58,209 bases of DNA from a virus. Taxonomy: Duplodnaviria > Caudoviricetes. The translations under genes were made by a program, and so were the position numbers. The stretch lies in IMG/VR virus record IMGVR_UViG_3300046739_000338, positions 1-58,209 of that record; one strand, written 5' to 3'. The notes under the pieces were generated by a model. The model was not told the DNA's origin, did not search any database, and was given only the letters and a program-made list of their open reading frames with translations. Position 1 is the first letter of the stretch. The number at the start of each line of letters is the position of its first letter. This document shows positions 128-58,209 of the stretch, in pieces.

Positions 128-1140
128 GACTGCGGCTCGAGTTGCCGTTCGTAATCGGCAGTGACTGGCGCCAGTGACAAGCGCGATGCTGGGGCCGGCG
201 AGACGTCTGGTTCGGGCTGCGGTGTGGGAGCTTTGGGTGCGACGCGGCGCGCCACATCGGCCACAAAGGCGCCGAGGGCATCCGTCGCCTGATCGGCCGT
301 CAATTCCTGCTCGATCGTCGGCATCGCTTCGTTGATATCAGTCATGATCGGATCCTCACTATCCGTGGGCACGCGCTCGGTGAGCACGGCGGCTAAGTCA
401 ATCGGCGCATCCTCGCGCAACGTCAACAACGCGCGCACCGTCGGCAGGCGTTCAGCGAAGGCGAGTAAGGCTGTCGCTTGCGCTGGCTTCACGGCGTTCA
501 GCTCGACTCCGGAATGAAGGACGGTATACAAGTCATCCAGATTCCCGAATTGCGCCAGCAACGCCGCGGCTCCCTTGGCTCCGATGCCTTTGACGCCAAC
601 CACGCCGTCGGACGCATCGCCAACCAGCGTCAGATAATCGCGGACCTGATCCGGCGTCACGCCGAACTTCTCCTTCACGGCGGCTGGATCCATCACGTTG
701 CCCGTCACCGGCGACTTCACACTGACGTGCTCCGTCACCAGCTGCAGCAAGTCTTTGTCCGCCGAGACGACCAGCACCGGCCAGGCGCCGACTCTCGCCT
801 GTGCCGTCGCACTCGCAATCACGTCGTCGGCTTCAAAGCCTTCCGCCATCCACTGCGGATAGCCGTCCGTCTTCAGCGTCTCCAGCGCAATCTCGCATTG
901 ATGAAAGAAGGGCGCCGGCTTCGATTCGCGCGCCGCTTTGTACGTCGCGTCCATCTCTTTGCGAAACGACGTCGGCGAATCCAAGCACAAGGCCACGTGC
1001 GGCTGGCCGCTCGCCAGGGCGCGCACCTTCGCGATGATGCCGATGGACGTCGCGTCCGGATTCGGATCATTGCTCGCCATGTGCCAGACAGGATGGGCAA
1101 TGGATGAGAAGTCGATGAGGACGATCGTCGGTTTATTCAC
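1..1140 (-). CDS. N-terminal part of a 5'-3' exonuclease (PIN/FEN + H3TH) fused to a RecT-like annealase; continues across the origin to 57753 (about 489 aa in total)
   Basis: Own translation from GTG 1140: MNKPTIVLIDFSS..FRKEMDATYKAAR..GFEADDVIAS..VVSADKDLLQLV..YLTLVGDASDGVVGVKGIGAKGA (PolA-type 5'-3' exonuclease motifs). No stop before ATG 126 (=58208). Missing from the ORF track because it runs off the window edge. Confidence 0.9.
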   Translation of the reverse strand, partial: MNKPTIVLIDFSSIAHPVWHMASNDPNPDATSIGIIAKVRALASGQPHVALCLDSPTSFRKEMDATYKAARESKPAPFFHQCEIALETLKTDGYPQWMAEGFEADDVIASATAQARVGAWPVLVVSADKDLLQLVTEHVSVKSPVTGNVMDPAAVKEKFGVTPDQVRDYLTLVGDASDGVVGVKGIGAKGAAALLAQFGNLDDLYTVLHSGVELNAVKPAQATALLAFAERLPTVRALLTLREDAPIDLAAVLTERVPTDSEDPIMTDINEAMPTIEQELTADQATDALGAFVADVARRVAPKAPTPQPEPDVSPAPASRLSLAPVTADYERQLEPQSMNQAVQLAQLLFKARLFSAYGTPEAVLSTVLSGRELGLSAMA

Positions 1141-1330
1141 CGTCGGACTCCAAGCTCGCCAGAAACGAATTCAAGCAATTGTCGGAACAGAAGTAGTAAT
1201 CCCCGCGCCGCGTCACGAAGAGAATCGGCTGCGGATGGTCGATGTCGTTCCCGCAGGTATCGCAGATGTGCCACTCGGGCGCGAGGCTGTCGTCCGTCTC
1301 GGCGTCCGGCTGATCGGCAAAGCGGCTCAT
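1133..1330 (-). CDS. Small TRASH/YHS-like metal-binding protein
   Basis: CDTC...YYFCSDNCL; overlaps both neighbours. Confidence 0.65.
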   Translation of the reverse strand: MSRFADQPDAETDDSLAPEWHICDTCGNDIDHPQPILFVTRRGDYYFCSDNCLNSFLASLESDGE

Positions 1331-32400: not shown

Positions 32401-33159
32401 ATGATCACTATCGCCTTGACGTACTTCAAGAGTCTGACGCTCGTCAACCTGATGGCGGCGCTCTATTCGGTGCGTCGGCAGGACTTCTCGCAGGTTGAAG
32501 AACTGGTCGTCGTCGACAACGATACGGCGGACGACCCTGAGCAGATTCGGTACCTCGTCGCGTCGTTCAACTTTCCCGTGCACGTGCGCGTCGTGTCGCA
32601 CAAGCACGGCGACCGGACGCTCGCGCAGGCGTGGTCGACGAACCAGACCGTGCGGCTGGCCGATACCGAATGGGTCTTTTATACGCGGGCTGACTACTTG
32701 CTCGATTTCGATATGCTGGCGAAGTTCGCGGCCATCGTCGCCAGCAAGCCGATCGGGTGGGATGGGTTCATCGTCAGCCACGGGTGTCATCTCGGAGAGG
32801 ACATCACCGGAGTCGAGCAATATCCGTGGCGGGACCATGGCACGCGCGTCCTGAAGGGCATCGTCTACGACTATACGGAGATCGACTCCGGCGTCTGGAT
32901 GGCACGACGCGGCACCTACGACCGCATCGGTGGATTCGACGAGCGGTTGTCGGCGTGGGGACACGCGCAGACCGAGTTCCAATACCGCATGCACCTCGCG
33001 GGCGTCGAGTTCGTGCGCGTGCCAGAGACGCTCTTTTATCATCCCGGTCACGGCGGCGACAAGGACATGGGGCTGGCGAATCAGCAATTGGCCGTCGTCG
33101 GGACGGACCTGAAGGTCATGTGGGCGCGCTACCACGGCGAGTCGCCCTATGGCCGCTAG
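32401..33159 (+). CDS. Glycosyltransferase, GT2-like
   Basis: ELVVVDND, IGGFDERLSAWGH, FYHPGH. Confidence 0.85.
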   Translation: MITIALTYFKSLTLVNLMAALYSVRRQDFSQVEELVVVDNDTADDPEQIRYLVASFNFPVHVRVVSHKHGDRTLAQAWSTNQTVRLADTEWVFYTRADYLLDFDMLAKFAAIVASKPIGWDGFIVSHGCHLGEDITGVEQYPWRDHGTRVLKGIVYDYTEIDSGVWMARRGTYDRIGGFDERLSAWGHAQTEFQYRMHLAGVEFVRVPETLFYHPGHGGDKDMGLANQQLAVVGTDLKVMWARYHGESPYGR

Positions 33160-33850
33160 GCCCTATACGCGCTCGCTGCACCCTGAGGACTACGAGTTCT
33201 TGCCGCAGACGCAACCGCTGCGGTTGTTCGAGCGCGACATGACGCTCTTCAAGGTTCCGCACCGCGAGTGGCACGAGCACCGCTTCTGGGAGTATGCGTC
33301 GATCCTGCAGCAACTCGACGAACTGCACGTGCCGTCGGACGCCGAGATGGTCGACGTCGGAGCTGGGGCGAGCTTCTTCGACCCGTACTGCGCGATTCGC
33401 TTCGAGCGCCTCTGCTGCGTCGACAACATGCTCTATGGCGACATCGCGCCGATGGTCGACGCGCAGCGCCGTCATTACGGCGTGCCGCTGCCGCTCTACG
33501 ACATGCCGCTCGAAAACATGGCGACGTTTATCAGTAATACGTTCGACGTGACGCTGTGCATCAGCACGATCGAGCACGCGACCGACCACGACGCGGCGTT
33601 TAACGAGCTGGTGCGGATTACGAAGCCGGGAGGGTATCTCTTTCTTACGTCTGATTATTTCCGAGACCTGCAGCACTTCGAGCAGTCGGTGTCGCGCGTC
33701 TATCAGGTGACGCCCTATACGCAGGAGTTCGTGCTCGACCTGCCGAACCGGTTCCCCGTGAAGTTCGTCGGCAAGACGGATCTCGACTATCGCGGAGACT
33801 TCGTTCACAACTACTCGTTCTGCAACGTCTGCCTGAGGAAGTTATGGTAA
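33149..33850 (+). CDS. SAM-dependent methyltransferase
   Basis: MVDVGAGAS, FDVTLCISTIEH, RITKPGG. Confidence 0.88.
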   Translation: MAARPYTRSLHPEDYEFLPQTQPLRLFERDMTLFKVPHREWHEHRFWEYASILQQLDELHVPSDAEMVDVGAGASFFDPYCAIRFERLCCVDNMLYGDIAPMVDAQRRHYGVPLPLYDMPLENMATFISNTFDVTLCISTIEHATDHDAAFNELVRITKPGGYLFLTSDYFRDLQHFEQSVSRVYQVTPYTQEFVLDLPNRFPVKFVGKTDLDYRGDFVHNYSFCNVCLRKLW

Positions 33851-35073
33851 CCGAACGAGTGTGTCGCGCGTGCGGTCGGTCGCTCGTCTCGATGCTGAAC
33901 CTCGGCAACCTGGCACTGTCGGGATTCCCTGTTGGCGGCGAGGTGCCAGAGTTCGCGCCGCTCGACTTCTGCCATTGCTCATCGTGCGGCCTCGTGCAGC
34001 TGCGGCACACGGTCGAGCCAGACGTCCTGTTCAAACAGTATTGGTACAAGAGCGGCGTCAACGAGACGATGCGCGCCGAGCTGCACGACGTCATGCTCGA
34101 TGGGGTCGACCAGCTTGGGCACCTCGAAGAAGGCGACGTCATTGTCGACGTCGGGGCGAACGACGGGACGCTGCTCGCCTGGGCACCGAGGGGCGTGAAG
34201 CGCATCGCCTACGAACCGGCCGAGAACCTGCAGGAGAGCCTACGCAAGCACTGCGACGTACTGCATCCGGAATACTTCCCTGGCACGCAGCCGTTGGAGC
34301 CTGGCAGCGTGTCGTTGTTGACCTCGATCGCGTGCTTCTATGCGGTCGACGACCCAATCAAGTTCGTCAGCGCCGTGAACGACGCGCTGTCGGCGCGAGG
34401 CATCTGGGTGCTGCAGTTTCAGGACTTGCACCAGATGCTGATGGCGACGGCGTTCGACGACATCTGCCATGAGCACCTCTTCTACCCGAGCCTCGCGTCG
34501 ATCGCGCGGATGATCGAGCCGTTCGACTTGGAGATCATCGACGCCGAGCGCCGCGAGATCAACGGTGGGAGCCTGCGCGTGACGGTCGGCCGGCGCTGGC
34601 GGCACGTCTCGCCACACGTCAAGGCGATGACGATTGCCGAGTATCGCTGCGAGCACTTCATGACGCTGCGCGACTTCGCGCAACGGTTGCTGAAGACGCG
34701 CGAGAAGATCTACCAGGCACTCGACACGCAGCGTGGGCCGATCGACCTCTACGGTGCCTCGACGAAGGGCAACACGCTGCTGCAAGTCTGCGACCTCGGG
34801 CCGAAAGACATCCGCCAGGCCTGGGAGCGGTCGCCCGAGAAGTGGGGCCGGCAGACGATCACCGGTATCCCGATCGTCAGCGAAGAAGCAGGGCGCGCCG
34901 ACCCGCCGGCCATGCTCGTCGTCGGCATTTGGCAGTTCCGCGACGCGATCCTCCAGCGTGAAAAAGCGTATCTGGCGCAGGGGGGAAAGTTATTGTTCCC
35001 GCTGCCGAGAGTTGAGGTCATTGATGGTCTTCACCAAGGTGTCGGTGCTCATTCCCACACGGCATCGGCTTGA
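33844..35073 (+). CDS. NDP-sugar C-methyltransferase
   Basis: CRACG/CSSCGLVQL zinc site, VDVGANDGTLL, FDDICHEH, INGGSLR, YGASTKGNTLL. Confidence 0.9.
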   Translation: MVTERVCRACGRSLVSMLNLGNLALSGFPVGGEVPEFAPLDFCHCSSCGLVQLRHTVEPDVLFKQYWYKSGVNETMRAELHDVMLDGVDQLGHLEEGDVIVDVGANDGTLLAWAPRGVKRIAYEPAENLQESLRKHCDVLHPEYFPGTQPLEPGSVSLLTSIACFYAVDDPIKFVSAVNDALSARGIWVLQFQDLHQMLMATAFDDICHEHLFYPSLASIARMIEPFDLEIIDAERREINGGSLRVTVGRRWRHVSPHVKAMTIAEYRCEHFMTLRDFAQRLLKTREKIYQALDTQRGPIDLYGASTKGNTLLQVCDLGPKDIRQAWERSPEKWGRQTITGIPIVSEEAGRADPPAMLVVGIWQFRDAILQREKAYLAQGGKLLFPLPRVEVIDGLHQGVGAHSHTASA

Positions 35074-35695
35074 AAGGCTGGGGCAAGTGATTGCGTCGTA
35101 CCTGCAGACGGTCAACGTGGACCATGAGCATTCGGAGCTGGCCTTTCGCGTCGACGACGACGACGTCGAGACGCAACGCTACCTCGGGCGCGTCTCAGAC
35201 GAGGCGGTCGTGCCCTGCCGCGTCGTCGTTGGGCCGCGCAAGAAGGGCTACGCGAGCCTGGGCGATTTCTTCAACGAACTCTATGCGGCGTCGGATGGCG
35301 ACGTGCTGATGTGCGGCAACGACGACATGGTCTTTCAGACGTTCGGCTGGGACGAGAAGATCCTCGACGAGGCGAACCGCTATCCGGACGGCATCTTCGA
35401 CTTTGGCGTGGCGACGCACAACGAAGCGAACTTTCCGTTTGCGACCGTCTCGCGCAGCATGTGCGACCGACTGGGGTTCTTCTTTGACCCGCGTATGTTC
35501 TGGGGCGACATCTTTTGGCGGGACGTCACGTCACGATTCGGGCGGGCCATCGCGCTCGCCGACATTCGGATCGACCACGACTGGGCGGGCTTCGCGCCAG
35601 ATGAGGTGTTTCTCGAGGGTGAGCCGACGCGCCGGGCCGACCACCTGGCGTTTCACGCGCAGGCGGTGAACGAAGCCGTGGAGAAGCTGAAGTGA
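35024..35695 (+). CDS. Glycosyltransferase, GT2-like
   Basis: VSVLIPTRHR, VDDDD, CGNDDM. Confidence 0.8.
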   Translation: MVFTKVSVLIPTRHRLERLGQVIASYLQTVNVDHEHSELAFRVDDDDVETQRYLGRVSDEAVVPCRVVVGPRKKGYASLGDFFNELYAASDGDVLMCGNDDMVFQTFGWDEKILDEANRYPDGIFDFGVATHNEANFPFATVSRSMCDRLGFFFDPRMFWGDIFWRDVTSRFGRAIALADIRIDHDWAGFAPDEVFLEGEPTRRADHLAFHAQAVNEAVEKLK

Positions 35696-36342
35696 AACCC
35701 ATCTATGTGTGCGTCCCGGTCCTCAGGCGCTACGACCTGCTCCGGCAGATGCTCATATCACTGGAGCCGAGCACCGTCGAGCCGTCGGGCGTCTACGTCA
35801 TCGACAACGGGCGCAACGCCGAGCGGGTGAAGGCGGCGACCGACAGGTGCCCATTCCCCGTCGTCATCTGGACGCCCGAGGAGCCGATGGGCATCGCGGA
35901 GTCGTGGAACTGGTTCCTGGACCACGCGCCAGAGGAGCGTCTCATCACGAACGATGACATCGTCTTCGCGCCCGAGTCGCTCGAAGCGTTCGGCAAGACG
36001 ACGACCGACATCTGCTGGTCGCGCGAGGCGGGCTTCTCGTGCTTCATCATCCGCGACAGCTGCGTGAAGAAGATCGGCTACTTCGACGAGTCGATCTCGC
36101 CTGGCTACGCCTACTTCGAGGACGAGGACTACGCGCAGCGGATCAACCGGAAGGGCAAGGGGCCGGAGTTCGCGACCTCCGGCGATTGCGTCTCTGGCCT
36201 GGAGCACTTGCACAGCCAGACGATCTCGGTGGCGTCGCCAGATGAGCTCGAGGACCACCATCGTCGGTTCTGGGTCGCGCGCTACAACTACGTCATGAAG
36301 TGGGACCTGCAGAAGGAGTTCAACATGGACAAGAACCTATGA
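35692..36342 (+). CDS. Glycosyltransferase, GT2-like
   Basis: YVIDNG, TNDDI, IGYFDE, YFEDEDY. Confidence 0.85.
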   Translation: MKPIYVCVPVLRRYDLLRQMLISLEPSTVEPSGVYVIDNGRNAERVKAATDRCPFPVVIWTPEEPMGIAESWNWFLDHAPEERLITNDDIVFAPESLEAFGKTTTDICWSREAGFSCFIIRDSCVKKIGYFDESISPGYAYFEDEDYAQRINRKGKGPEFATSGDCVSGLEHLHSQTISVASPDELEDHHRRFWVARYNYVMKWDLQKEFNMDKNL

Positions 36343-36869
36343 TCACGTTTCTGGTGCCGACCATCGGTCGTCCCTCGCTGCTGCACACGCTGCGGTCGAT
36401 CGAGACGTTGCCGGGCGACGAAATCCTCGTCGTCGGCGGTGTCAATCCGATGTGCACCGATCCGCGCGTGCGGTGCATCCCATGCAAGCCGGGTGGAGAT
36501 TGGGGACACGCCGAGCGCAACTACGCGTCACCGATGGCAAAAGGCCAGTACATCGCGCACATCGACGACGACGACGTCTACTCGCCAGGGACGAGGGCGT
36601 TGATGCAGGACGCCATCGAGAAGACGCCGGGCTTGCCCATCTTGTTTCGCATGCAGTATCCGAACGGGTATCGGCTCTGGCAAGAGGAGAAAGTCTATTG
36701 CGGGAATGTTGGGACGCCGATGTTCTTGATCCCGAACCAACCCGAGAAGTGTGGGACGTGGGGATCGTTCGTCGGCGGGGACTGCTCGTTCTTGGAAACA
36801 AGCAAGTGGGCGGCGGAGGACTACGTGTGGCGGCCAGAGGTCACGGTGCTGTTGGGGCACAACGTATGA
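36339..36869 (+). CDS. Glycosyltransferase, GT2-like (short)
   Basis: VPTIGRPSL, GHAERN, AHIDDDD. Confidence 0.82.
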   Translation: MITFLVPTIGRPSLLHTLRSIETLPGDEILVVGGVNPMCTDPRVRCIPCKPGGDWGHAERNYASPMAKGQYIAHIDDDDVYSPGTRALMQDAIEKTPGLPILFRMQYPNGYRLWQEEKVYCGNVGTPMFLIPNQPEKCGTWGSFVGGDCSFLETSKWAAEDYVWRPEVTVLLGHNV

Positions 36870-37099
36870 TCATCGGCTTCAACAAACCAGCAGGCATCGG
36901 CATGATCGCGCGCATCGACATCGTGAATGGTGACGAGATTTACCAAAATGTTCCAGTCATGATTCTTCGAGAAGCAACGGTTGAAGAATGGCTGGCGGAT
37001 GCGGTAGACCGCTACGGCGAACAGAAAGGGAGGGCTGTATTAGCAGAACGATTATCTCAGTTTCCAGGTGCTGTGTTTTACGACGTGAGCATTGATTAG
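36866..37099 (+). CDS. Small hypothetical protein (AT-richer insert)
   Basis: ATGA overlap; ILREATVEEW. Confidence 0.5.
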   Translation: MIIGFNKPAGIGMIARIDIVNGDEIYQNVPVMILREATVEEWLADAVDRYGEQKGRAVLAERLSQFPGAVFYDVSID

Positions 37100-37115
37100 C
37101 GTGGGGCTAATGACT

Positions 37116-38321
37116 ATGAAAAAGCTACTGTGGGTCGGAGACGCCGCGTGCCCCTCTGGGTTCGCGCAGGCGACGCACAAGACGCTCGAGACGCTGAAGG
37201 ACCATTACGACGTGACCGTCTTGGGAATCAACTACCGCGGCGATCCCTACGACTATCCTTATCCCATCTACGCCGCTGCCGCCGGCGGTGATCAGCTCGG
37301 GATCAACCGCCTCATCTGGATGTGCGCGAACTTCGAGCCCGACCTCATCGTGCTGCAGAACGACCCGTGGCAGATTCCGCTCTACCTGCGGCAGCTGCAG
37401 CAGTATCCCGAGCATCGGCACATTCCGGTCATCGCGTCGCTGGCCGTCGACGGGAAGAACCAGCAGGGGATGAACCACCTCAACGGCCTCTCGCTAGCCA
37501 TCTTCTGGTCTGAGTTCGGGCAGCGCGAGGCACGCAAGGCCGGGTATACGGGGCCGAGCACGGTCATTCCGCTGGGCGTCGACCTCGACACCTATTACCC
37601 GATCGACAAGACCCAGGCGCGGCTGAACCGCAAGCTCGACTTCGTCAAGGACAAATTCATCGTCGGCAACGTCAACCGCAACCAGCCGCGCAAGCGCTGG
37701 GACTTGACGATCGAGTACTTCGCCGAGTGGGTCAAGGCCGAGAAGATCAAGGACGCGCGGCTCTACTTCCACACGGCGCCGACGGGCGACGTCGGCTGCG
37801 ACGTCAAGCAGTTGGTGAAGTATTACGGCATCCTCGACATGTTGCTGCTGCGCGAGCCGCAGGTCTGGTACGGCGACTCCGATGAGGCGATGCGCGAGAC
37901 TTACAACTGCTTCGATGTCCAAGTGAGCACGACACAGGGCGAGGGGTTCGGCCTGACGACGTTCGAGGGCATGGCCTGCGGCGTGCCGCAGATCGTGCCC
38001 GATTGGGCGGCGCTCGGAGAGCACGCGAGGAACGCTGCACTGCTTGTGCCGTGCACGTCGACGGCCATCGGGTGGCCCTACCTGAACATCATCGGCGGCA
38101 TCGCGGATAAGGCAGGCTTTATCAAAGCACTGTCGTTGATGTATCACGACCACAACGTGCGTGAAGAGTTCAGAGCTCTCGGTTTCGTGCGTGTGATGGA
38201 CGATAAATTGCGTTGGCCGAACATCGGCGAGCGGTGGGTGAAAGAGCTGGCGCAGATCGAGGCCAAGCACACCGAGATCGAGTGGAAGGACCTCGGACGT
38301 CCAGAAGAGGTGACCACGTGA
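37116..38321 (+). CDS. Glycosyltransferase, GT4 (GT-B fold)
   Basis: NRNQPRKRWD, YNCFDV..GEGFGLTTFEGMACGVP. Confidence 0.92.
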   Translation: MKKLLWVGDAACPSGFAQATHKTLETLKDHYDVTVLGINYRGDPYDYPYPIYAAAAGGDQLGINRLIWMCANFEPDLIVLQNDPWQIPLYLRQLQQYPEHRHIPVIASLAVDGKNQQGMNHLNGLSLAIFWSEFGQREARKAGYTGPSTVIPLGVDLDTYYPIDKTQARLNRKLDFVKDKFIVGNVNRNQPRKRWDLTIEYFAEWVKAEKIKDARLYFHTAPTGDVGCDVKQLVKYYGILDMLLLREPQVWYGDSDEAMRETYNCFDVQVSTTQGEGFGLTTFEGMACGVPQIVPDWAALGEHARNAALLVPCTSTAIGWPYLNIIGGIADKAGFIKALSLMYHDHNVREEFRALGFVRVMDDKLRWPNIGERWVKELAQIEAKHTEIEWKDLGRPEEVTT

Positions 38322-51920: not shown

Positions 51921-52105
51921 ATACAGCACTCTTGCTCGCGCTCATCACGCAGATCGGCATCCCGGAACTCGAAGCCTGGCTGCGGTCCTTGCGCGGCGGC
52001 GGCCAGCAGACGTTGACCGACGCCGACGTGCTCGCGAAGTTGGCGACCGACACGAAGTTCATCGAGGACATCGGCAACGCGTGGTTGGCACAGCACCCGA
52101 AGTAA
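51917..52105 (+). CDS. Hypothetical protein
   Basis: ATGA overlap; last + strand gene. Confidence 0.6.
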   Translation: MNTALLLALITQIGIPELEAWLRSLRGGGQQTLTDADVLAKLATDTKFIEDIGNAWLAQHPK

Positions 52106-52106
52106 G

Positions 52107-52322
52107 CTACATCTTGACAAGCTGATCCTGTAACGACTGGATAAACCGTTGAAGTTGTTCTTTAGTGAGCATCACTTCGCGGCAACGGCCGCGATCGGGA
52201 CCGACTGAACGATAGGTCAACCGGAGTTCTAAGATGGGTAACGACGAACCCTCAACGACGATCCCATCGATGACCTCAGATTCAACGAATCGGCCGAAGA
52301 GCGTTGCGACTTCTGATTTCAT
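52107..52322 (-). CDS. Hypothetical protein (AT-richer)
   Basis: AAGGAA RBS; MKSEVATLFGRF. Confidence 0.5.
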   Translation of the reverse strand: MKSEVATLFGRFVESEVIDGIVVEGSSLPILELRLTYRSVGPDRGRCREVMLTKEQLQRFIQSLQDQLVKM

Positions 52323-52572
52323 GGGTTCCTTAAAGTGCGACTGGGTCCGGTGTCCGGGCTTCTCGGCCCTGGCGCCGGCGCCCGTGCCGCCACCGCTGCC
52401 CTGCGACTGCGGGAGGGCGCCGAAATAAACCTCGGAGGCGGTGCAACCTCGACCCGTGGCGTCATCGTCATCCGTAACGAACAAGAACGATCCCCAGTCA
52501 GGCCAAATTCCCACCGCATTCATCGAGTGCTGACCCGCCGGCAATATGGCGGGTATCGATCTCCGAGGCTCA

Positions 52573-52755
52573 TCACAGGCCGTAGAGCCAGTCCCAGAAG
52601 GCATACCACATGTCCCACCAGGACACCGAGACGGAAGCGGCGTGGAGATAGGCGCCCGACGTGCCGACGAGGATGACGACGGCGAGGAGCCACAGCGTCT
52701 TGCGCTCGGAGGGCAGGTCACTCCAGCGACCGGCGCGAATCAACTGCATCAGCAT
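52573..52755 (-). CDS. Small membrane protein
   Basis: AAAGGAG RBS; one TM segment. Confidence 0.6.
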   Translation of the reverse strand: MLMQLIRAGRWSDLPSERKTLWLLAVVILVGTSGAYLHAASVSVSWWDMWYAFWDWLYGL

Positions 52756-52771
52756 GGTCGTTCTCCTTTGT

Positions 52772-53047
52772 TCATGGCTGCACCGGAGGATCAGGGAGCG
52801 CGGATTCGCGTGAACCGATCCAGATATGTTCTTCAGCCTTGCAGCCGTCGCGGGTGCCTTCCTTCACGAGCCAGCCAATTGCTCGTTCAGCGTCCTCTCT
52901 CCGAGCGAAGCGCATGGCACACTTCGCTCGATGGTGCAGCGTGCCATCAATCGCATCGGTCCATTCGTCGCCGCGTCCCGTCCACCACTGCGGCGTGGAA
53001 CTCCCGAGCGCCACGAGCCACGCGACCTGTTCTGTTGCTTTGTTCAT
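52772..53047 (-). CDS. Hypothetical protein
   Basis: VAWLV..WTD..RFARREDAE..AEEHIW; ends ALPDPPVQP. Confidence 0.7.
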   Translation of the reverse strand: MNKATEQVAWLVALGSSTPQWWTGRGDEWTDAIDGTLHHRAKCAMRFARREDAERAIGWLVKEGTRDGCKAEEHIWIGSRESALPDPPVQP

Positions 53048-53059
53048 TTGTCGGTCCCC

Positions 53060-53452
53060 CTAGGTGTCCGCGCGTGTAGTCGCTGCAATCGTAGCCACAC
53101 TACGATTCGGGGCATTTCGTGAAACCATTAACCGATAGATAGCGGTCAGAGCAGATTGAACAGCAAGGTCGCGCGGCAACGGATGTTGGCTCACGCACGA
53201 TTGAATGTAGTCAACGGCCGCGTCCCAATCAGTGTCCAATGGCTCCTGTCGGTCCCCCTCGGTGTCCGCCCGCAGTAGGGCCTCCATCATCTCAGCACAG
53301 ACCGCAAACGCCTTGGCCTCACCAGCCGCCCGCAGACGATCCGGCGTCAGTGTCCCTTCGACAGAGAACTGCCCAGCCATTAGCGCCATCGAGCGAAACT
53401 CCTTCGCTAACACTTCAATGTGCCACCTGATCCCTGAATGCTTGCGTTTCAT
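53060..53452 (-). CDS. Mosaic hypothetical protein
   Basis: Contains one DTEGDRQ; its stop codon lies inside another repeat copy. Confidence 0.7.
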   Translation of the reverse strand: MKRKHSGIRWHIEVLAKEFRSMALMAGQFSVEGTLTPDRLRAAGEAKAFAVCAEMMEALLRADTEGDRQEPLDTDWDAAVDYIQSCVSQHPLPRDLAVQSALTAIYRLMVSRNAPNRSVATIAATTRADT

Positions 53453-54063
53453 TTCATCTCCCTCTCCGTCACGGCGATGGCTTCTTGCAGCACGTGCTTC
53501 ACGTTTTCGGCTTCCTCAGCGGATGTGTGATCCGTCCATTCAATCGAATCGAGGAACCCCAACGCAGAGTCTGCGGCACCTCGCAGCGTGCTTGTCGCTG
53601 AAGTTGGCTCCTGTCGGTCCCCCTCGGTGTCCGCCCGCGTTGGCGGTGCCTCGTTTAAGTAGCCGCGCCTAAACCAGTTGGGGCGTTCTGCGTCAAGCTC
53701 GCGTGCCCAACCAGCAACAACCATCGGGTCGATAGCCGACACGCCATTCGCCGTCGCATTTCGCATGCGCTCCACCAGCGTCGAAAGCGACCGCTTCGAT
53801 GGGTCATGCAGCGGACAGCCGAACTCGCCGCGACCCGTCCAGCAGGAACAAGTCTCAGGCTCCTGTCGGTCCCCCTCGGTGTCCAGCACGGCCGCACGTA
53901 ACTGAGAAGCCGCAGCAATCATCGCTTCGCCGCGGCCTTGCGCGCGATCTCGCCGGTCAGGTGGGAAGTCGAGGGTGTTCGCGTCTGCGAAATGACTCTC
54001 GATTTGTGCTTCAAACCGTTCCATCAGCGCTCGGAGTCGTCGGGTGCGGGCGTCAGCCGTCAT
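53449..54063 (-). CDS. Mosaic hypothetical protein
   Basis: Starts MTADARTRRLRAL; two DTEGDRQ linkers. Confidence 0.75.
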   Translation of the reverse strand: MTADARTRRLRALMERFEAQIESHFADANTLDFPPDRRDRAQGRGEAMIAAASQLRAAVLDTEGDRQEPETCSCWTGRGEFGCPLHDPSKRSLSTLVERMRNATANGVSAIDPMVVAGWARELDAERPNWFRRGYLNEAPPTRADTEGDRQEPTSATSTLRGAADSALGFLDSIEWTDHTSAEEAENVKHVLQEAIAVTEREMK

Positions 54064-54893
54064 GGCTGCACCGGAGGATCAGGGAGCGCCACAAACGCGC
54101 CGGGGTGTTCCTGCTTGATATGCGCGGCCATATCCTCATACGTGCAGAACGTGGCCCCACAGGGCGAACGATACGGATTGCAATCGCTGTTACATCGGGG
54201 CGCAGGACTGGCGTCCCCCTCGGCTACTGAGCGTTCGGTCATGCAGTCACCACAGACAACTTCCAGCATCGGTTGGTCGCAGAGATCGCAGCGTTGTTCT
54301 GGCTCCTGTCGGTCCCCCTCGGTGTTCGCCCGTGGCGATTGGAGTGCTTGAATCGCCGCGATGATATTGGCGTGCCAGCTGTCATGCTCGCGCGGATAGG
54401 TTCCAAGAACCAGTTCGATGCGGCCCTTGATGTAATCCCAGCCTTCGACTTGTGCGTTCAGGATGGCGATCTCTTTCTTCGCGTCTTCAAGGTCTTGGAA
54501 GACAGTGCCTGAGTGCTCCTGTCGGTCCCCCTCGGTGTCCGCCCGTGGCTTCCATTCCTGACCGTCAATGTCATGTGTCACGCCGGGGATAAGAATGGGG
54601 CGGTCATCGCGGCACTCCACGCAAGTGCAGGGCGTCATGACGCCATCACCGCCAGCGCATTTCGCGGAACAAAAGCCAGCGCCATCAATGGGGAATCCGC
54701 AGGTTGAACAGTTTGGAAACGGCCCATGTTTTGGCTTCTTGTGAACCTGTCGGTCCCCCTCGGTGTCCAGCACGGCCTCAAGTTCGTCCGCGCAAATCAG
54801 GAACCCTGTCGGACGATTGGGACGACTGGAAATCTCTCGCCATTTCGCTTCTAGCGCTCGGAGTCGTCGGGTGCGGGCGTCGTCGGTCGTCAT
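54060..54893 (-). CDS. Mosaic Cys-rich hypothetical protein
   Basis: GGAG RBS, MTTDDARTRRLRAL; three (D/N)TEGDRQ linkers; several CxxC pairs; ends ALPDPPVQP. Confidence 0.75.
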   Translation of the reverse strand: MTTDDARTRRLRALEAKWREISSRPNRPTGFLICADELEAVLDTEGDRQVHKKPKHGPFPNCSTCGFPIDGAGFCSAKCAGGDGVMTPCTCVECRDDRPILIPGVTHDIDGQEWKPRADTEGDRQEHSGTVFQDLEDAKKEIAILNAQVEGWDYIKGRIELVLGTYPREHDSWHANIIAAIQALQSPRANTEGDRQEPEQRCDLCDQPMLEVVCGDCMTERSVAEGDASPAPRCNSDCNPYRSPCGATFCTYEDMAAHIKQEHPGAFVALPDPPVQP

Positions 54894-55164
54894 GGTTGTC
54901 TCCAGTTCACCGGCCCGACCGTGGCGAAGAGTGGGTTGATTGCGCCGTGCGACAGCAGCGTGATGTAGATGTCCTCTCGCCCAGCACACGCAACCGTTCT
55001 TCGTCGGTCAGCGTCCAGCGGGTGATGACTTGACCATCTGGCGTGCGAATCGAGGGCAAGTCGCGGTATTCGGTCTGATGCTCAGCGATGACAACGGCCC
55101 GTGAGCCTTCAGGGACCAGTGAGGGATCGACGCGCGGGTCAGCGATTTCCATTGGTGTTCTCAT
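54890..55164 (-). pseudogene. Apparently frameshifted small phage gene
   Basis: HQTEYRDLPS..RWTLTDEERLRVLGE continues as EDIYITLLSHGAINPLF..WRQP* in the -1 frame from about 54976. Confidence 0.55.
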
Positions 55165-55399
55165 ATCGCTTCGTTGACAAGTTGTAGACCATGCCTCCGG
55201 CCGAATGTCGCTGGAAGCTCTGAAGATCGTGCGAAGCCTGCGGCCGTGAAATGCCGAACTTCCGCATCAGGTGCTCCCGATTGATGAACCCGTAGATGTG
55301 CAGCATGTCGGCAATGAATGCCACGCGCTGATTCTCGAACCATCGACTCATCGTCCTGGCGCTCGGAGTCGTCGGGGTGCGGGCGTCATCAGACGACAT
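55139..55399 (-). CDS. Stand-alone winged-HTH resembling the N-terminal domain of CapW/BrxR-type WYL regulators
   Basis: QRVAFIADMLHIYGFINREHLMRKFGISRPQASHDL..MVYNLSTKRY; start may be 55399 or 55351. Confidence 0.7.
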   Translation of the reverse strand: MSSDDARTPTTPSARTMSRWFENQRVAFIADMLHIYGFINREHLMRKFGISRPQASHDLQSFQRHSAGGMVYNLSTKRYENTNGNR

Positions 55400-55586
55400 A
55401 CACATCATCCGCGCGCGGCCCCTTGGCCCCGGACGCGTCCTCGAATTCGACTTCCTGCCCGACGGTCAGCACTTCAAACCGGACGTTCTTGCAGACCGTC
55501 TTGTGCGCGAAATAGTCCTTTCCATCCTGACCTTTGATGAAGAAAAATCCTTTCTCGAGGTGCAACGACTTCACGGTGCCGGTCAT
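55389..55586 (-). CDS. csp: Cold-shock domain protein
   Basis: GAAGGAG RBS; MTGTVK..KGFFFI..DYFAH..GQEVEF..KGPRADDV. Confidence 0.92.
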   Translation of the reverse strand: MTGTVKSLHLEKGFFFIKGQDGKDYFAHKTVCKNVRFEVLTVGQEVEFEDASGAKGPRADDVYVV

Positions 55587-55799
55587 ACGCGTCTCCTTCT
55601 GCCAACCCATGCGATCAATGCCAAGACGATTAATCCTGCGACGATGCCGATCGCGACGTCGAGGATGGTGGTCATTTAACCTCGTTCAGCAGTTCGAAGT
55701 ATTCAGACGGCTGCTGATGTTTCATGTCGACGTCGACATAGTGTGATATGCGAAACCACATCAGCAAGAATCGAATCAGTGCACGCTCTGTTCGTTCAG

Positions 55800-56099
55800 T
55801 CATGCTTTTTCCTCCCACGCGACGCAGCCGAACGTTGCCGTCGTGCAGAGATCAATATTGTAAAAGTCAGACAGAAATTGGCACTTGATAAAAGGACTCG
55901 GTTCCCGCCCTATCGGAAATGTTGTCCAGTGCTTGCACGTCTCGCACCGCGGCACCAGCATGTAGGTCTCCTCTGGCTTGAACGGCGTCAGCTTCTTGAT
56001 GGCCGCGGTGCACAACTCGGCTTCGTGCTCCGTCAGCGGGCCGCCGCCCGACGTCAGCTCGTCTTCGATCGCTTCGAGCCAGTCGTTGATGATGATCAT
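55800..56099 (-). CDS. Cys-containing hypothetical protein
   Basis: RCETCKHW...TFGCVAWE. Confidence 0.6.
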   Translation of the reverse strand: MIIINDWLEAIEDELTSGGGPLTEHEAELCTAAIKKLTPFKPEETYMLVPRCETCKHWTTFPIGREPSPFIKCQFLSDFYNIDLCTTATFGCVAWEEKA

Positions 56100-56314
56100 C
56101 GCATCCCTTCCTCTTCGCGCAGCATGATCCGCCGCTGATACCAGCGAATCAGCAATGGAATGCCGACCACTGACCGACGATTCGGGAGGCCGCACTGCGT
56201 CAGGCGCGCACCTCGGTGCACCTCCGGACCGACGACGCCGCGCAGATCGGGCGGATCGGGCTGGCGCATCAGATGCACGAAGCGGTTCATCAGCGACGGG
56301 GAATCAATTCGCAT
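56096..56314 (-). CDS. Hypothetical protein
   Basis: GGAGG RBS; ATGA overlap. Confidence 0.5.
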   Translation of the reverse strand: MRIDSPSLMNRFVHLMRQPDPPDLRGVVGPEVHRGARLTQCGLPNRRSVVGIPLLIRWYQRRIMLREEEGMR

Positions 56315-56427
56315 GCGCCACCTCCGTTACCATGAGATCCGCCAGACCCAGAGCGCCGCGAATGCCGCGATGAGCAAGATATTCCGCGCCGCAATCCACC
56401 AATCCCGGTTGGTCATGGCGTCCAACC

Positions 56428-56835
56428 TCAATCCAACTCGCATACCGCGTTGTTGCCACTCAACTGAGGATGCGTCCCGGCCGGGCACTGCCCGCCGGCC
56501 ACGTCGTCGAGCACGAAGCTGTCGTAGCACGTCCAGCGGCAGGTGGACTTCAGCACGAACCACTCGTGCGTCCAGGGGCGGTAGACGGCGGGATCGTCGA
56601 TGCCGTCACCGTCGTAGTCAGCAGCCGGCAGCACGACGTCTCCGTTGAAGCCCCAGTAGAACTCGATGACGATCGGGTTGTTCGCCGCATCGTGGGAGCG
56701 GATGTGCCACTTGAGGTAGTTGTCGACGACGGTGACGGTCGCGGCGCTGGCGTATTTCGAAAGGTACTTGCCAGGGACGAAGCGCTGGGCGCCGAGCGTG
56801 GCGCTGAGGACGACGATGATTAAGGCGGTTTTCAT
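56428..56835 (-). CDS. Secreted protein with an FG-GAP/VCBS-like repeat
   Basis: Signal peptide; LPAADYDGDGIDDPAVYRPWTHEWFV. Confidence 0.75.
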   Translation of the reverse strand: MKTALIIVVLSATLGAQRFVPGKYLSKYASAATVTVVDNYLKWHIRSHDAANNPIVIEFYWGFNGDVVLPAADYDGDGIDDPAVYRPWTHEWFVLKSTCRWTCYDSFVLDDVAGGQCPAGTHPQLSGNNAVCELD

Positions 56836-57233
56836 ACAGGCGTCCGTTTCTCATCTATATCGGTTGTTGTCGAAGTGGTAATCTGGCGAATGGTTCTAAC
56901 CGTTCGACTTTCACCACCACGAACCCAATCCAGCCATTCGACAAACTCAGTAACGGATTGATTTCTTTTCGCGTAGTTACAGGTCGGACAAGATATGGCG
57001 TAATTAAAAAACTCGTCGCTGCCCCCAAGCGACCGCGCTTCTATGTGGTCGACATGGGAAGTATGCAGACTTATCTTGATTCCGCAATACCAGCAGAACC
57101 AACCGTGAATATCCGCAAGCCGACGCAAGACCACCTGTCTTTCACGTTGTTGGCGTCCCCGCTTTGTGCCTGAGTGGCTGGTGCGATGCGGAACCCGCTG
57201 AGCTATTGGAACTATCCGGGGACAACTACTCAT
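56832..57233 (-). CDS. HNH endonuclease
   Basis: CWYCG..HVDHIEARSLGGSD..NYAISCPTCNYAK; AT-richer. Confidence 0.9.
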   Translation of the reverse strand: MSSCPRIVPIAQRVPHRTSHSGTKRGRQQRERQVVLRRLADIHGWFCWYCGIKISLHTSHVDHIEARSLGGSDEFFNYAISCPTCNYAKRNQSVTEFVEWLDWVRGGESRTVRTIRQITTSTTTDIDEKRTPV

Positions 57234-57342: not shown

Positions 57343-57753
57343 TCACCACTTGATCTGCTCCTCATCGACCATCGGCTCGGCTGTCTTCGGCTGATAGCCA
57401 CTGCGGATTCGCGCCGCCCAGGCACGAGCGCGCGCCGCATCCAGCTCGTTGTAATGCTTCTTCGTTGGGTCCGCTTCCTTGCCGGCGAAGTAATCCAGCC
57501 GTGCCGCGACCAGATCCAAGTAGTCCGGTGGGCACTCGCTCATGTGGCGCCCTGTCATGTCCGGCCCGGTCCAGTCCTTCGGACTCTTGGCCTTGATGAG
57601 CGGGTCGCCATACTTGCTGTCAAGGTCGACGTGCAGCGCCACGTCATCGGTCGGTTTCGGCGTGGCGGCGCGCTTCGACTTCGACAGTGCCAACAGGGCT
57701 TTCAGCGTGGCATCGATGCTTTTGAGTAGGGCAATGTCGATGGAATCAGACAT
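57343..57753 (-). CDS. Hypothetical protein coupled to the recombinase, with an acidic-aromatic C-terminal tail
   Basis: TAATG overlap with the recombinase stop; ends DEEQIKW, reminiscent of an SSB C-tail. Confidence 0.65.
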   Translation of the reverse strand: MSDSIDIALLKSIDATLKALLALSKSKRAATPKPTDDVALHVDLDSKYGDPLIKAKSPKDWTGPDMTGRHMSECPPDYLDLVAARLDYFAGKEADPTKKHYNELDAARARAWAARIRSGYQPKTAEPMVDEEQIKW

Positions 57754-58209
57754 TAGAACTCCTCTGGCGAATACAACCCAGCGACCACATCCGGATAGAC
57801 CAACCGCGCCAGCTTCGAGGATGCTCGCGCGACCAACATGTCCGATGGATTCTTCGTCCAGCTGCCGCCATTCTTCACGAGGCCAGCCGCTTGCGCTTCT
57901 TCAATCGTGTACCGCAGTTCCATCGGTTCTTCGCCTTCGCGCGTCGTCGTGAACGTCGCCGCCGACGCCGTGCGCTCGGTGCACCGGAACGTCTTCGCCT
58001 TGCCAGATTTCAGCACCAAGGCTCGGAGGGCATCCGCCGCCATCGTGGGTTTGCCTTCGACCACGTGAAACGCGCGCAGGCTCGCCATCGCCGAGAGGCC
58101 CAATTCACGGCCAGACAAGACCGTCGACAACACGGCTTCAGGCGTGCCGTAGGCGCTGAACAGGCGCGCCTTGAACAGCAACTGCGCCAACTGCACGGCC
58201 TGGTTCATG
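57753..58209 (-). CDS. RecT/Red-beta-like annealase domain (C-terminal part of the fusion starting at 1140)
   Basis: GRELGLSAMASL..HVVEGKP..WTKNPSDMLVARA..LARLVYPDVVAGLYSPEE. Confidence 0.85.
   Translation of the reverse strand, partial: MNQAVQLAQLLFKARLFSAYGTPEAVLSTVLSGRELGLSAMASLRAFHVVEGKPTMAADALRALVLKSGKAKTFRCTERTASAATFTTTREGEEPMELRYTIEEAQAAGLVKNGGSWTKNPSDMLVARASSKLARLVYPDVVAGLYSPEEF
58083..58209. repeat. Terminal direct repeat (assembly overlap), copy 2
   Basis: Identical to 1-127. Confidence 0.97.

Follow-up and report, generated by a model that had tools for sequence, protein, structure and literature searches.

Why should a phage carry, inside the coding sequence of a run of small genes, several near-identical copies of one short DNA repeat that are all read in the same frame? 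This question is raised by IMG/VR virus record IMGVR_UViG_3300046739_000338 (Duplodnaviria; Caudoviricetes), a complete record, 58,209 bp long and carrying direct terminal repeats; the whole of this stretch is referred to below as the window. The repeat, named LINK here, consists of the core GGACACCGAGGGGGACC, which is read DTEGD, followed by a Pro-rich tail, and its copies punctuate a run of small open reading frames (ORFs) on the minus strand, three of which (ORFs A to C) carry them and are followed by a fourth (ORF D). The analysis presented below indicates that the seven window copies, along with two companion sequences named START and END, are probably standard in-frame homology adaptors delimiting shuffled domain cassettes in a hypervariable early locus of a family of soil phages.

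An earlier note made on this DNA from its letters alone (the original prediction) had claimed the existence of seven near-identical in-frame copies spaced about 190-440 bp apart, and exactly this number was found. GACACCGAGGGGGACCGACAGG gave seven matches with at most 3 mismatches, all on the minus strand between positions 53047 and 54767, as compared with a mean of 0.00 and a largest count of 0 in 100 shuffles, and no further copy is present anywhere in the 58-kb record. The spacings between the copies are 198, 365, 252, 443, 213, and 228 nucleotides (nt). Every copy is in the frame of a minus-strand ORF, where it reads (D/N)TEGDRQ: three are carried by ORF A, two by ORF B, and one by ORF C, the stop of which is formed by the remaining TAG copy. 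The pairwise exact identity among the six copies having GAG ranges from 21 to 34 nt (23-34 nt in 14 of the 15 pairs, and 21 nt in one pair). The segments between the window copies are unrelated to one another in module clustering and several of them are Cys-rich, in line with what had been claimed. The partial copy announced near position 54211 (AEGDA) corresponds to a degenerate linker, the DNA of which (GCC GAG GGG GAC GCC AGT CCT GCG CCC) has a "DASPAP" flavour; at the homologous position, relative G005 carries a full DTEGDPPTP copy.

LINK is one of three standard junctions conserved at the DNA level, the other two of which the original prediction had overlooked. START is the gene start MTxDARTRRLRAL, where two of the linker ORFs share about 40 nt (MT(T/A)DDARTRRLRAL), and END is the gene end LPDPPVQP followed by the stop codon, with an ATGA overlap with the next start. 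The layout of ORF A, the longest of the four, is therefore START, leader, LINK, Cys-rich module, LINK, helical module, LINK, CxxC module, degenerate LINK, CNSDC module, and END. The START sequence is also present in a third, START-like copy, which contains a 1-nt insertion. This copy heads an 89-residue ORF (55139-55408) and is read there in another frame as DDARTPTTPSAR, an internal ATG being located right after the motif; this ORF has no Pfam match. Since the insertion places the motif in another frame, the junction survives here as DNA without its peptide.

Cassettes occur in many orders and end at the junctions

Relatives were found by scanning a viral contig collection with the exact core, which yielded about 18 contigs. 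In 18 related viral contigs, with the copies of the window counted in, the 17-mer core is present in 57 copies with at most 2 mismatches, 40 of which are exact. All 57 copies are on the gene strand and always in the DTEGD frame, which is open over 133-325 codons around each genuine copy. In 111 kb of related loci, GAGGGGGA occurs 53 times, on the sense strand only, and is always read EGD. START is kept as DNA in 17 and END in 16 of the 18 contigs. Protein searches returned a few dozen relatives, all of which are unnamed or annotated as "hypothetical." The contigs L130, L133, L149, and L150 were excluded as chance matches inside unrelated genes, and only one (L151) of the 3 loci obtained in a metagenome scan with a 20-mer is a relative. 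The 102 single 17-mer matches in bacterial and archaeal genomes are scattered over unrelated high-GC taxa and appear to be at chance level (a rough estimate of our own gives tens in 596 Gb); no prophage copy was identified in this genome scan for the 17-mer. One linker copy of L134, on the reverse strand at about 2976-2992, has six G in place of five, so that the frame shifts into an Arg-rich tail; this G-run is likely a slippage or sequencing-error spot and its Arg-rich tail is probably meaningless.

The order of the modules is not shared by these relatives. Cutting 39 distinct proteins at their linkers (34 from the loci and 5 from a protein database) gave 106 segments, after exclusion of five proteins that were chance matches or lacked the linker; the junction residues were trimmed before clustering. 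In the 18 module families with at least 2 members, the left neighbour differs in 13 cases, the right neighbour in 12, and all 18 differ on at least one side. For example, the window leader EAKWREISSRPNRPTGFLICADEL precedes other modules in G003, P0004, and P0022; the helical third module has other partners in P0002 and P0003, and the CNSDCNPY terminal module has a different preceding module in G005. The stretch of the window extending from LINK to LINK at 53267-53632, which spans a gene boundary, is found again in L135 (88% identity over 383 nt), with unrelated sequence on both sides.

The ends of the homology blocks lie in the junction sequences. We collected 75 inter-contig blastn high-scoring segment pairs (HSPs) of at least 70 nt touching the arrays, 114 ends of which are inside the arrays: 75 of these 114 ends are within 20 nt of START, LINK, or END, as compared with 22.6% of the positions, the HSPs being mutually non-independent. 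The clearest check on the predicted swapping of modules exactly at the repeat is provided by G005 and L146, which share 166 of 167 nt over the interval that opens with the AVL flank of one LINK and closes with the DRP tail of the next one, while their flanks are unalignable. Further cassettes, with 94-99% identity, are also bounded by junctions. Beyond the arrays, the contigs become homologous again at START (upstream side) and at END (downstream side), which makes the array a hypervariable island at a fixed genomic position. The claim that the repeats are recombination joints for shuffling is in agreement with both sets of data: cassettes occur in many orders and combinations in the relatives, and the homology breakpoints lie in the junctions. 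In four other metagenome runs, junction motifs were found at 21 of the 24 listed loose contig ends (45 more fall outside this listing), and window modules continue there into other sequence; these data consist of contigs, probably from one sampling campaign. The contig joints in the four runs were also considered as deletions or circles, and rejected: none of their sides exceeds 31 nt, a length that the repeat itself accounts for.

The cassettes are small domains that can stand by themselves. A complete DUF3850 (profile positions 2-77 of 77) is located between START and LINK in L136, DUF3850 (profile positions 2-76) immediately follows the START motif in L146, and DUF551 occupies a terminal module in relatives. 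DUF3850/ASCH, DUF551, and a weak zf_ZIC match are the only Pfam families found in the relatives' modules, and the four window ORFs show no Pfam family at E ≤ 0.01. When the library was searched with ORF A, each module was matched separately: its Cys-rich module 2 matches free-standing proteins of 61, 67, and 74 residues that start at the first residues of the module, and its leader core and terminal module occur elsewhere alone or in other contexts. AlphaFold2 run on ORF A without an alignment gave a mean pLDDT of 39.9, which is too low for use.

The same cassettes are found fused and split, as the original prediction had anticipated. In the seventh window copy, which reads GACACC-TAG-GGGGACCGACAA-ATG, the predicted change from GAG to TAG does provide the stop of ORF C, and two more changes (CAGG>CAAA) create the ATG of ORF D (position 53047), located 7 nt past GGGGGA; judging from this spacing, GGGGGA may be the ribosome-binding site of ORF D. 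The ORF D module, which is thus a separate gene behind a TAG linker in the window, is an in-frame C-terminal fusion behind a GAG linker in G003 and L128, where the fusions keep the ORF D ATG at 7 nt past GGGGGA. A given module can therefore stand as its own gene or be fused in frame, according to whether its linker carries TAG or GAG, and it seems that the linker can switch between a spacer and a stop plus ribosome site. An in-frame start codon is present 4-11 nt past the G-run in 6 of the 57 linkers (their 4 ATGs are all at 7 nt). Since the other 51 have no in-frame start downstream, most downstream modules can only be made as fusions.

Other junctions of this kind are present in the relatives. 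LINK2, a second in-frame junction reading AALLHAHPP, is absent from the window and is identical over about 26 nt in five contigs (over 27 nt if one synonymous C/T site is allowed for); the contigs concerned are L014-L018 and L134 (relatives G001, G002, G004, G005, and L134). Leaders and tails are swapped around LINK2, which has its own start (MSADGLRVGLE) and its own end (ALLPPEDGQP followed by a stop) and belongs to another gene family. Distant relatives of one module, the database proteins P0013, P0016, P0012, and P0034, carry other repeated Pro-rich linkers (AAPPAPTAE, ASPVPAE, and ASPPPA), and these protein sequences suggest that each lineage has its own linker flavour. Searches with P0013 and with the alignment of module f12 returned two known contigs only and no new lineage with a different linker flavour.

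What keeps the linker constant

The LINK codons are GAC ACC GAG GGG GAC CGA CAG, three of which are seldom used in the structural genes (ACC accounts for 22% of Thr, GGG for 22% of Gly, and CGA for 6% of Arg). Given the peptide, the probability of this exact codon string is about 0.09% per copy, and it is present exactly in 5 of the 7 window copies, which bears out the conservation at synonymous positions that had been claimed. In the five core codons of the 57 copies, 4 changes were counted at the 5 third-position sites and 8 at the 10 first- and second-position sites, i.e., an equal rate per site. In homologous modules (8 pairs with at least 65% amino acid identity, 546 codons), 59, 41, and 146 changes were counted at positions 1, 2, and 3, respectively; only these pairs were kept since the remaining blastp pairs were mostly spurious, junction-anchored alignments of low identity. 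The difference between these two patterns shows that the modules evolve as coding sequences, in the frame that passes through the linkers, and the linker does not, and the fact that the third positions are no more variable than the first and second ones indicates that LINK is held or homogenized as DNA.

These data are accounted for in the preferred reading, that of in-frame homology adaptors, by the following mechanism. Cassettes would be exchanged, in co-infected cells or with prophages, through homologous recombination in the 21-34 nt over which the junctions are identical, and the exchange may be carried out by the 5'-3' exonuclease/RecT-like protein of the phage itself or by the host RecA. 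The shortest stretch that still pairs efficiently amounts to 23-27 bp in the case of Red-beta and 31-34 bp in that of RecA (PMC3945230), so that the identity between the GAG copies fits a pairing minimum of the Red-beta type and is around that of RecA. As the phase of the junction never changes, an open frame would result from any exchange, and the process would resemble phase-compatible exon shuffling without introns. Repeated exchange might in turn keep the junction DNA homogeneous, synonymous sites included. The acidic, Pro-rich peptide would simply be a flexible spacer separating mini-domains that fold independently; these are probably accessory proteins for host takeover or anti-defence.

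Several points weigh against this reading. Exchange is deduced from assembled contigs only, and the relatives all come from similar soil and rhizosphere metagenomes of one period and are not strongly independent lineages. The conservation of the core is explained in part by ascertainment, since the 17-mer was searched with at most 2 mismatches, a limit that favours no codon position. Degenerate copies exist, at 3 of the 53 GAGGGGGA sites and as AEGD or VEGD forms in database proteins. Seven direct repeats beside an annealing protein should delete cassettes, and their persistence needs selection or rare recombination. The involvement of RecT is circumstantial: the RecT-like domain matches a PHROG at 3e-23, and its Pfam RecT score of 23.2 bits is under the curated cut-off of 24. 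The translation of the modules as fusion proteins is presumed from the open frames and the lack of start codons. Lastly, the peptide is in frame in all 57 copies and distant relatives use other repeated Pro-rich linkers: a protein-level requirement on the linker is real, and could be the primary constraint.

The alternative which follows from this last point is that the linker is conserved primarily as a peptide signal, either a protease or self-cleavage site or a bound short motif, recombination being a side effect. The DTEGD frame is used without exception, and yet neither of the two remaining frames of the repeat contains a stop; the degenerate copies retain EGD and a Pro-rich tail; and the downstream half of LINK varies in its DNA and yet remains Pro-rich (DRQEP, DRPxP, DASPAP, and DPPTP), as do the linkers of the distant relatives mentioned above. 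Polyvalent phage proteins have moreover been proposed to be cut into functional units (PMC5512222). Peptide selection alone does not predict, however, that the rare codons GGG and CGA should be kept and that third positions should be no more variable than the others, nor is it expected that the START motif should persist as DNA in a shifted frame. In addition, no peptidase domain was found in these proteins or in the 74 scanned ORFs of the window, apart from head-maturation-type matches in the structural block. A signal of this kind as the primary cause appears unlikely.

The repeat might also be a nucleic-acid site embedded in the coding sequence, i.e., a site for RNA processing or for a phage regulator that binds DNA or RNA, or a Shine-Dalgarno-like site (GAGGGGGA, AGGAG) for pausing or re-initiation. 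The conservation at the DNA level with a strict strand bias would suit this proposal, as would the resemblance of the core, by reading the sequence, to two 10-nt direct half-sites (GGACACCGAG and GGGGACCGAC), the Shine-Dalgarno-like G-run with an in-frame ATG at exactly 7 nt in 4 copies, and the presence of a cold-shock-domain gene 600 nt upstream. The RNA-level processing signal which the original prediction had offered as an alternative found no support: no stable or shared RNA fold was detected (z-scores of -1.24 to +0.66 for the 7 copies and the END/START junction), no Rfam family matched in 52000-56500, the only hit being a sub-threshold RtT match elsewhere, and there is no promoter- or terminator-like site at any copy. 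In addition, 51 of the 57 linkers have no in-frame start downstream, a pure nucleic-acid site does not require one reading phase in all 57 copies, and it leaves the ends of the homology blocks at the repeat unexplained. We therefore consider this explanation to be quite improbable.

A dedicated site-specific system (integron-, shufflon-, or homing-like) recognizing the 17-nt core, for instance by means of the HNH endonuclease encoded at 56832-57233 in the same operon of the window, is very improbable. It would account for a near-invariant core between two variable flanks and for cassettes that are discrete units, but no integrase or invertase family was found among the 74 window ORFs compared with PHROGs, all the copies are direct repeats and none is inverted, and no attC-like hairpin is present. 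In the relatives, the arrays come after the exonuclease/RecT-like gene and one small ORF, and the HNH block of the window is missing there, as judged from the ORFs and homology blocks without a family scan. Three junction sequences plus LINK2 behave alike, which fits general homology better than one recognized site.

That the shuffling is an artefact of metagenome assembly, due to chimeric contigs joined across short repeats, is highly unlikely: all the related sequences are indeed metagenome assemblies, and the Logan contigs of four runs break exactly at these repeats, but a protein identical to that of ORF A is known from 9 contigs, several arrangements recur with identical copy spacing in separately named contigs (e.g., 3300046517_001214, 3300046475_000195, and 3300046740_000335), each adjacency between a module, a junction, and a neighbour must exist in reads even in a chimeric path, and the final k-mers of common metagenome assemblers generally exceed the 21-34 nt of linker identity.

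Genomic setting of the array

Comparison of the 74 ORFs of the window with PHROGs revealed a siphovirus-like gene order. DNA methyltransferases, a helicase/primase, the large terminase, the portal, and the head and tail genes are found on the plus strand between about 4.2 and 51.4 kb. A methyltransferase-like gene and two glycosyltransferase-like genes (PHROG 4e-21 and 3e-37) are located at 33149-38321 on the plus strand between the head and tail blocks, and this place is unusual. The early block is on the minus strand and extends from the end of the record down to about 52.6 kb, its first gene spanning the record ends; it comprises successively the exonuclease/RecT-like gene, the HNH endonuclease gene, the cold-shock-domain gene, and the linker ORFs. 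The array is placed after the exonuclease/RecT-like gene in the window and in the relatives, and in relative G003, the same fusion forms a single ORF of 481 residues. The coordinates of the features are given in Table 1.

Table 1. Location of the junction sequences, the linker ORFs, and the exonuclease/RecT-like gene in the window.
Feature	Position	Strand	Remarks
LINK copy 1	54746..54767	minus	AVL-DTEGDRQ; extended repeat 54731-54773; joins leader to Cys-rich module 2 of ORF A
LINK copy 2	54518..54539	minus	PRA-DTEGDRQ; separates ORF A modules 2 and 3
LINK copy 3	54305..54326	minus	1 mismatch (AAC, NTEGDRQ); between modules 3 and 4 of ORF A
Degenerate LINK	54198..54224	minus	AEGDASPAP; retains CCGAGGGGGAC; precedes zinc-finger-like terminal module CNSDCNPY...
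LINK copy 4	53862..53883	minus	AAVL-DTEGDRQ; follows ORF B leader
LINK copy 5	53610..53631	minus	TRA-DTEGDRQ; in ORF B
LINK copy 6	53245..53266	minus	LRA-DTEGDRQ; in ORF C
LINK copy 7	53047..53068	minus	3 mismatches; GAG>TAG, stop of ORF C; precedes ORF D
START of ORF A	54851..54893	minus	ATG ACG ACC GAC GAC GCC CGC ACC CGA CGA CTC CGA GCG CT, read MTTDDARTRRLRAL
START of ORF B	54024..54063	minus	from repeat and alignment
END of ORF A	54060..54089	minus	ALPDPPVQP and stop, ATGA overlap; 30-nt exact repeat of 52772-52801
END of ORF D	52772..52801	minus	same 30-nt repeat
Third START-like DNA motif	55356..55408	minus	1-nt insertion; RTPTTPSAR in place of RTRRLRAL
ORF A	54060..54893	minus	277 amino acids, five modules; identical protein recorded on 9 contigs
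ORF B	53449..54063	minus	204 amino acids, three modules; start overlaps ORF A stop (ATGA)
ORF C	53060..53452	minus	130 amino acids, two modules; ends in TAG of LINK copy 7
ORF D	52772..53047	minus	91 amino acids, single module (family f3); ends in END
RecT-like C-terminal part of 5'-3' exonuclease/RecT-like fusion	57753..58208	minus	upstream in the gene block of the array
N-terminal part of same fusion, FEN-type 5'-3' exonuclease	1-1140	minus	Pfam 1e-29 and 5e-20

The G+C content at third codon positions (GC3) of the four cassette ORFs (52772-54893) is 0.62-0.66, versus 0.8-0.9 in most structural genes. This low value fits an accessory sequence pool circulating among genomes; with a GC3 of only 0.62-0.66, the GC3 frame plot of the array region is not discriminating. 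The phage has no close isolated counterpart as regards its portal protein, which shows at most 35% identity to that of any isolated phage, and the 2.8-kb array region has no match in GenBank phages. The sequence occurs in 24 sequencing runs, in all cases as contigs, obtained from soil and rhizosphere metagenomes, and no RNA run is listed among them.

Besides the linker ORFs, a 65-residue ORF beside the exonuclease gene (1133-1330, minus strand) matches the zinc-finger families TRASH/zf-FCS (Pfam 1e-7). The Cys-rich module 2 of ORF A (residues 52-100; 54594-54740) includes an FCS-like motif and has 12 matching stretches with the 2,186-residue protein P0023. Taken together, these matches suggest a repeated type of zinc finger.

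Known systems and significance of the array

The closest parallels are found in the PeSL cassettes of T4-type phages, which are described as short conserved repeats in a hyperplastic region of small accessory ORFs, where they bound the segments inserted, deleted, or replaced from one related phage to another (Arbiol et al., 2010; PMC2839356). The bounding of exchanged blocks is borne out in the array by the HSP ends (75 of 114) and by the cassette identical at 166 of 167 nt. Homologous recombination between the repeats, targeting the exchange to "acceptable" places, has been proposed in the case of the PeSLs (PMC2839356). These are intergenic, however, measure about 100 bp, consist of a sigma-70 promoter plus a terminator stem-loop, and move whole genes with their regulation (PMC2839356); mini-circles have also been shown for PeSLs. 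The array involves a repeat of 17-34 nt inside ORFs, in a fixed phase and without any promoter, terminator, or fold, and moves protein domains, which gives fusion proteins: all 7 window copies and all 57 copies in total lie inside open frames, and no promoter- or terminator-like site was found at any copy.

The glycine-rich motifs (GRMs) of gp38, the tail-fibre adhesin of T-even phages, are conserved in-frame motifs alternating with hypervariable segments, and exchanges occur near these motifs (Trojet et al., 2011; PMC3157838). An in-frame motif alternating with variable segments is found in the array as well. The GRMs nevertheless form the structural core of one domain, the loops of which are the variable segments, and deleting any of them abolishes the function (PMC3157838). 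The array, on the other hand, joins unrelated autonomous domains by a spacer motif, has start and end adaptors, and occupies an early accessory locus which is not a host-range determinant; its motifs and segments do not build one structural domain, DUF3850, DUF551, and the free-standing module 2 being separate.

In the mosaicism of temperate phages attributed to Rad52-like, Red-beta, and RecT proteins, patches of high identity are bounded by short homology, and the annealing protein uses short or diverged homology (Martinsohn et al., 2008, PMC2327257; De Paepe et al., 2014, PMC3945230). Here a RecT-like gene adjoins the array, and the identity at the joints is no shorter than the Red-beta pairing minimum in 14 of the 15 GAG pairs. 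The difference is that the shoulders of homology described in the temperate phages are ordinary diverged genes (PMC2327257; PMC3945230), whereas the array reuses a few standard in-phase repeats within one genome. Polyvalent proteins likewise combine unrelated conflict-type domains in one mobile-element polypeptide with variable architectures (Iyer et al., 2017; PMC5512222). In contrast with the array proteins, they are described as large, with 2-15 domains belonging to a defined set, and as often packaged, a peptidase being proposed; the word "linker" is absent from the main text of that paper (PMC5512222). None of those domains nor any peptidase was detected in the array proteins.

Integrons depend on the IntI integrase and on attC sites that fold, and what they move is whole genes lacking a promoter, while shufflons are based on inverted sites and the Rci invertase. 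An array of discrete exchangeable cassettes at one locus, with a recurring site, is the feature they have in common with the present locus. An integron array was rejected since no integrase family was found among the 74 ORFs compared with PHROGs and no attC-like folding inverted repeat at the copies, and a shufflon was rejected since all the copies are on one strand, without inverted sites. A CRISPR array or a solitary CRISPR-repeat mimic (28-37 nt repeats, regular spacers, non-coding) was rejected as well, the spacing being irregular (198-443 nt) and the copies being located inside ORFs. In the open-access papers searched, no paper containing DTEGDRQ, DTEGDRP, LPDPPVQP, or RTRRLRAL was found, nor any description of in-frame linker shuffling of this kind in phages.

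One may go further and suppose that the START, LINK, and END "grammar" evolved as a combinatorial assembly line, on which mini-domains are inserted, removed, fused, and split in frame by the exonuclease/RecT-like recombinase of the phage. This stronger proposal is possible, though we regard it as doubtful. If it were true, the array would correspond, for protein domains, to an integron or to phase-compatible exon shuffling, the adaptors would persist since the lineages carrying them re-assort their anti-host effectors faster, and a one-base TAG/GAG toggle would set whether a cassette is a gene of its own or part of a fusion.

Phage genomes are mosaics, and it has long been asked how their new joints come about without damage to genes: illegitimate recombination followed by selection has been opposed to guided exchange at "linker" sequences. 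The documented cases of guided exchange are either intergenic (the PeSLs) or confined to a single adhesin domain (the gp38 motifs). The present array shares the principle of the known systems but differs from them in its unit and its place: whole domains that are unrelated to one another are joined, in an early accessory locus, by a short, phase-fixed coding adaptor accompanied by adaptors for start and end. Since recent exchanges are bounded exactly by the adaptor, the linker hypothesis becomes testable at the level of protein-domain shuffling, and the array provides a natural design rule for in-frame modular assembly. It also marks about 80 small, mostly uncharacterised domains as probable, independently acting early effectors of these phages.

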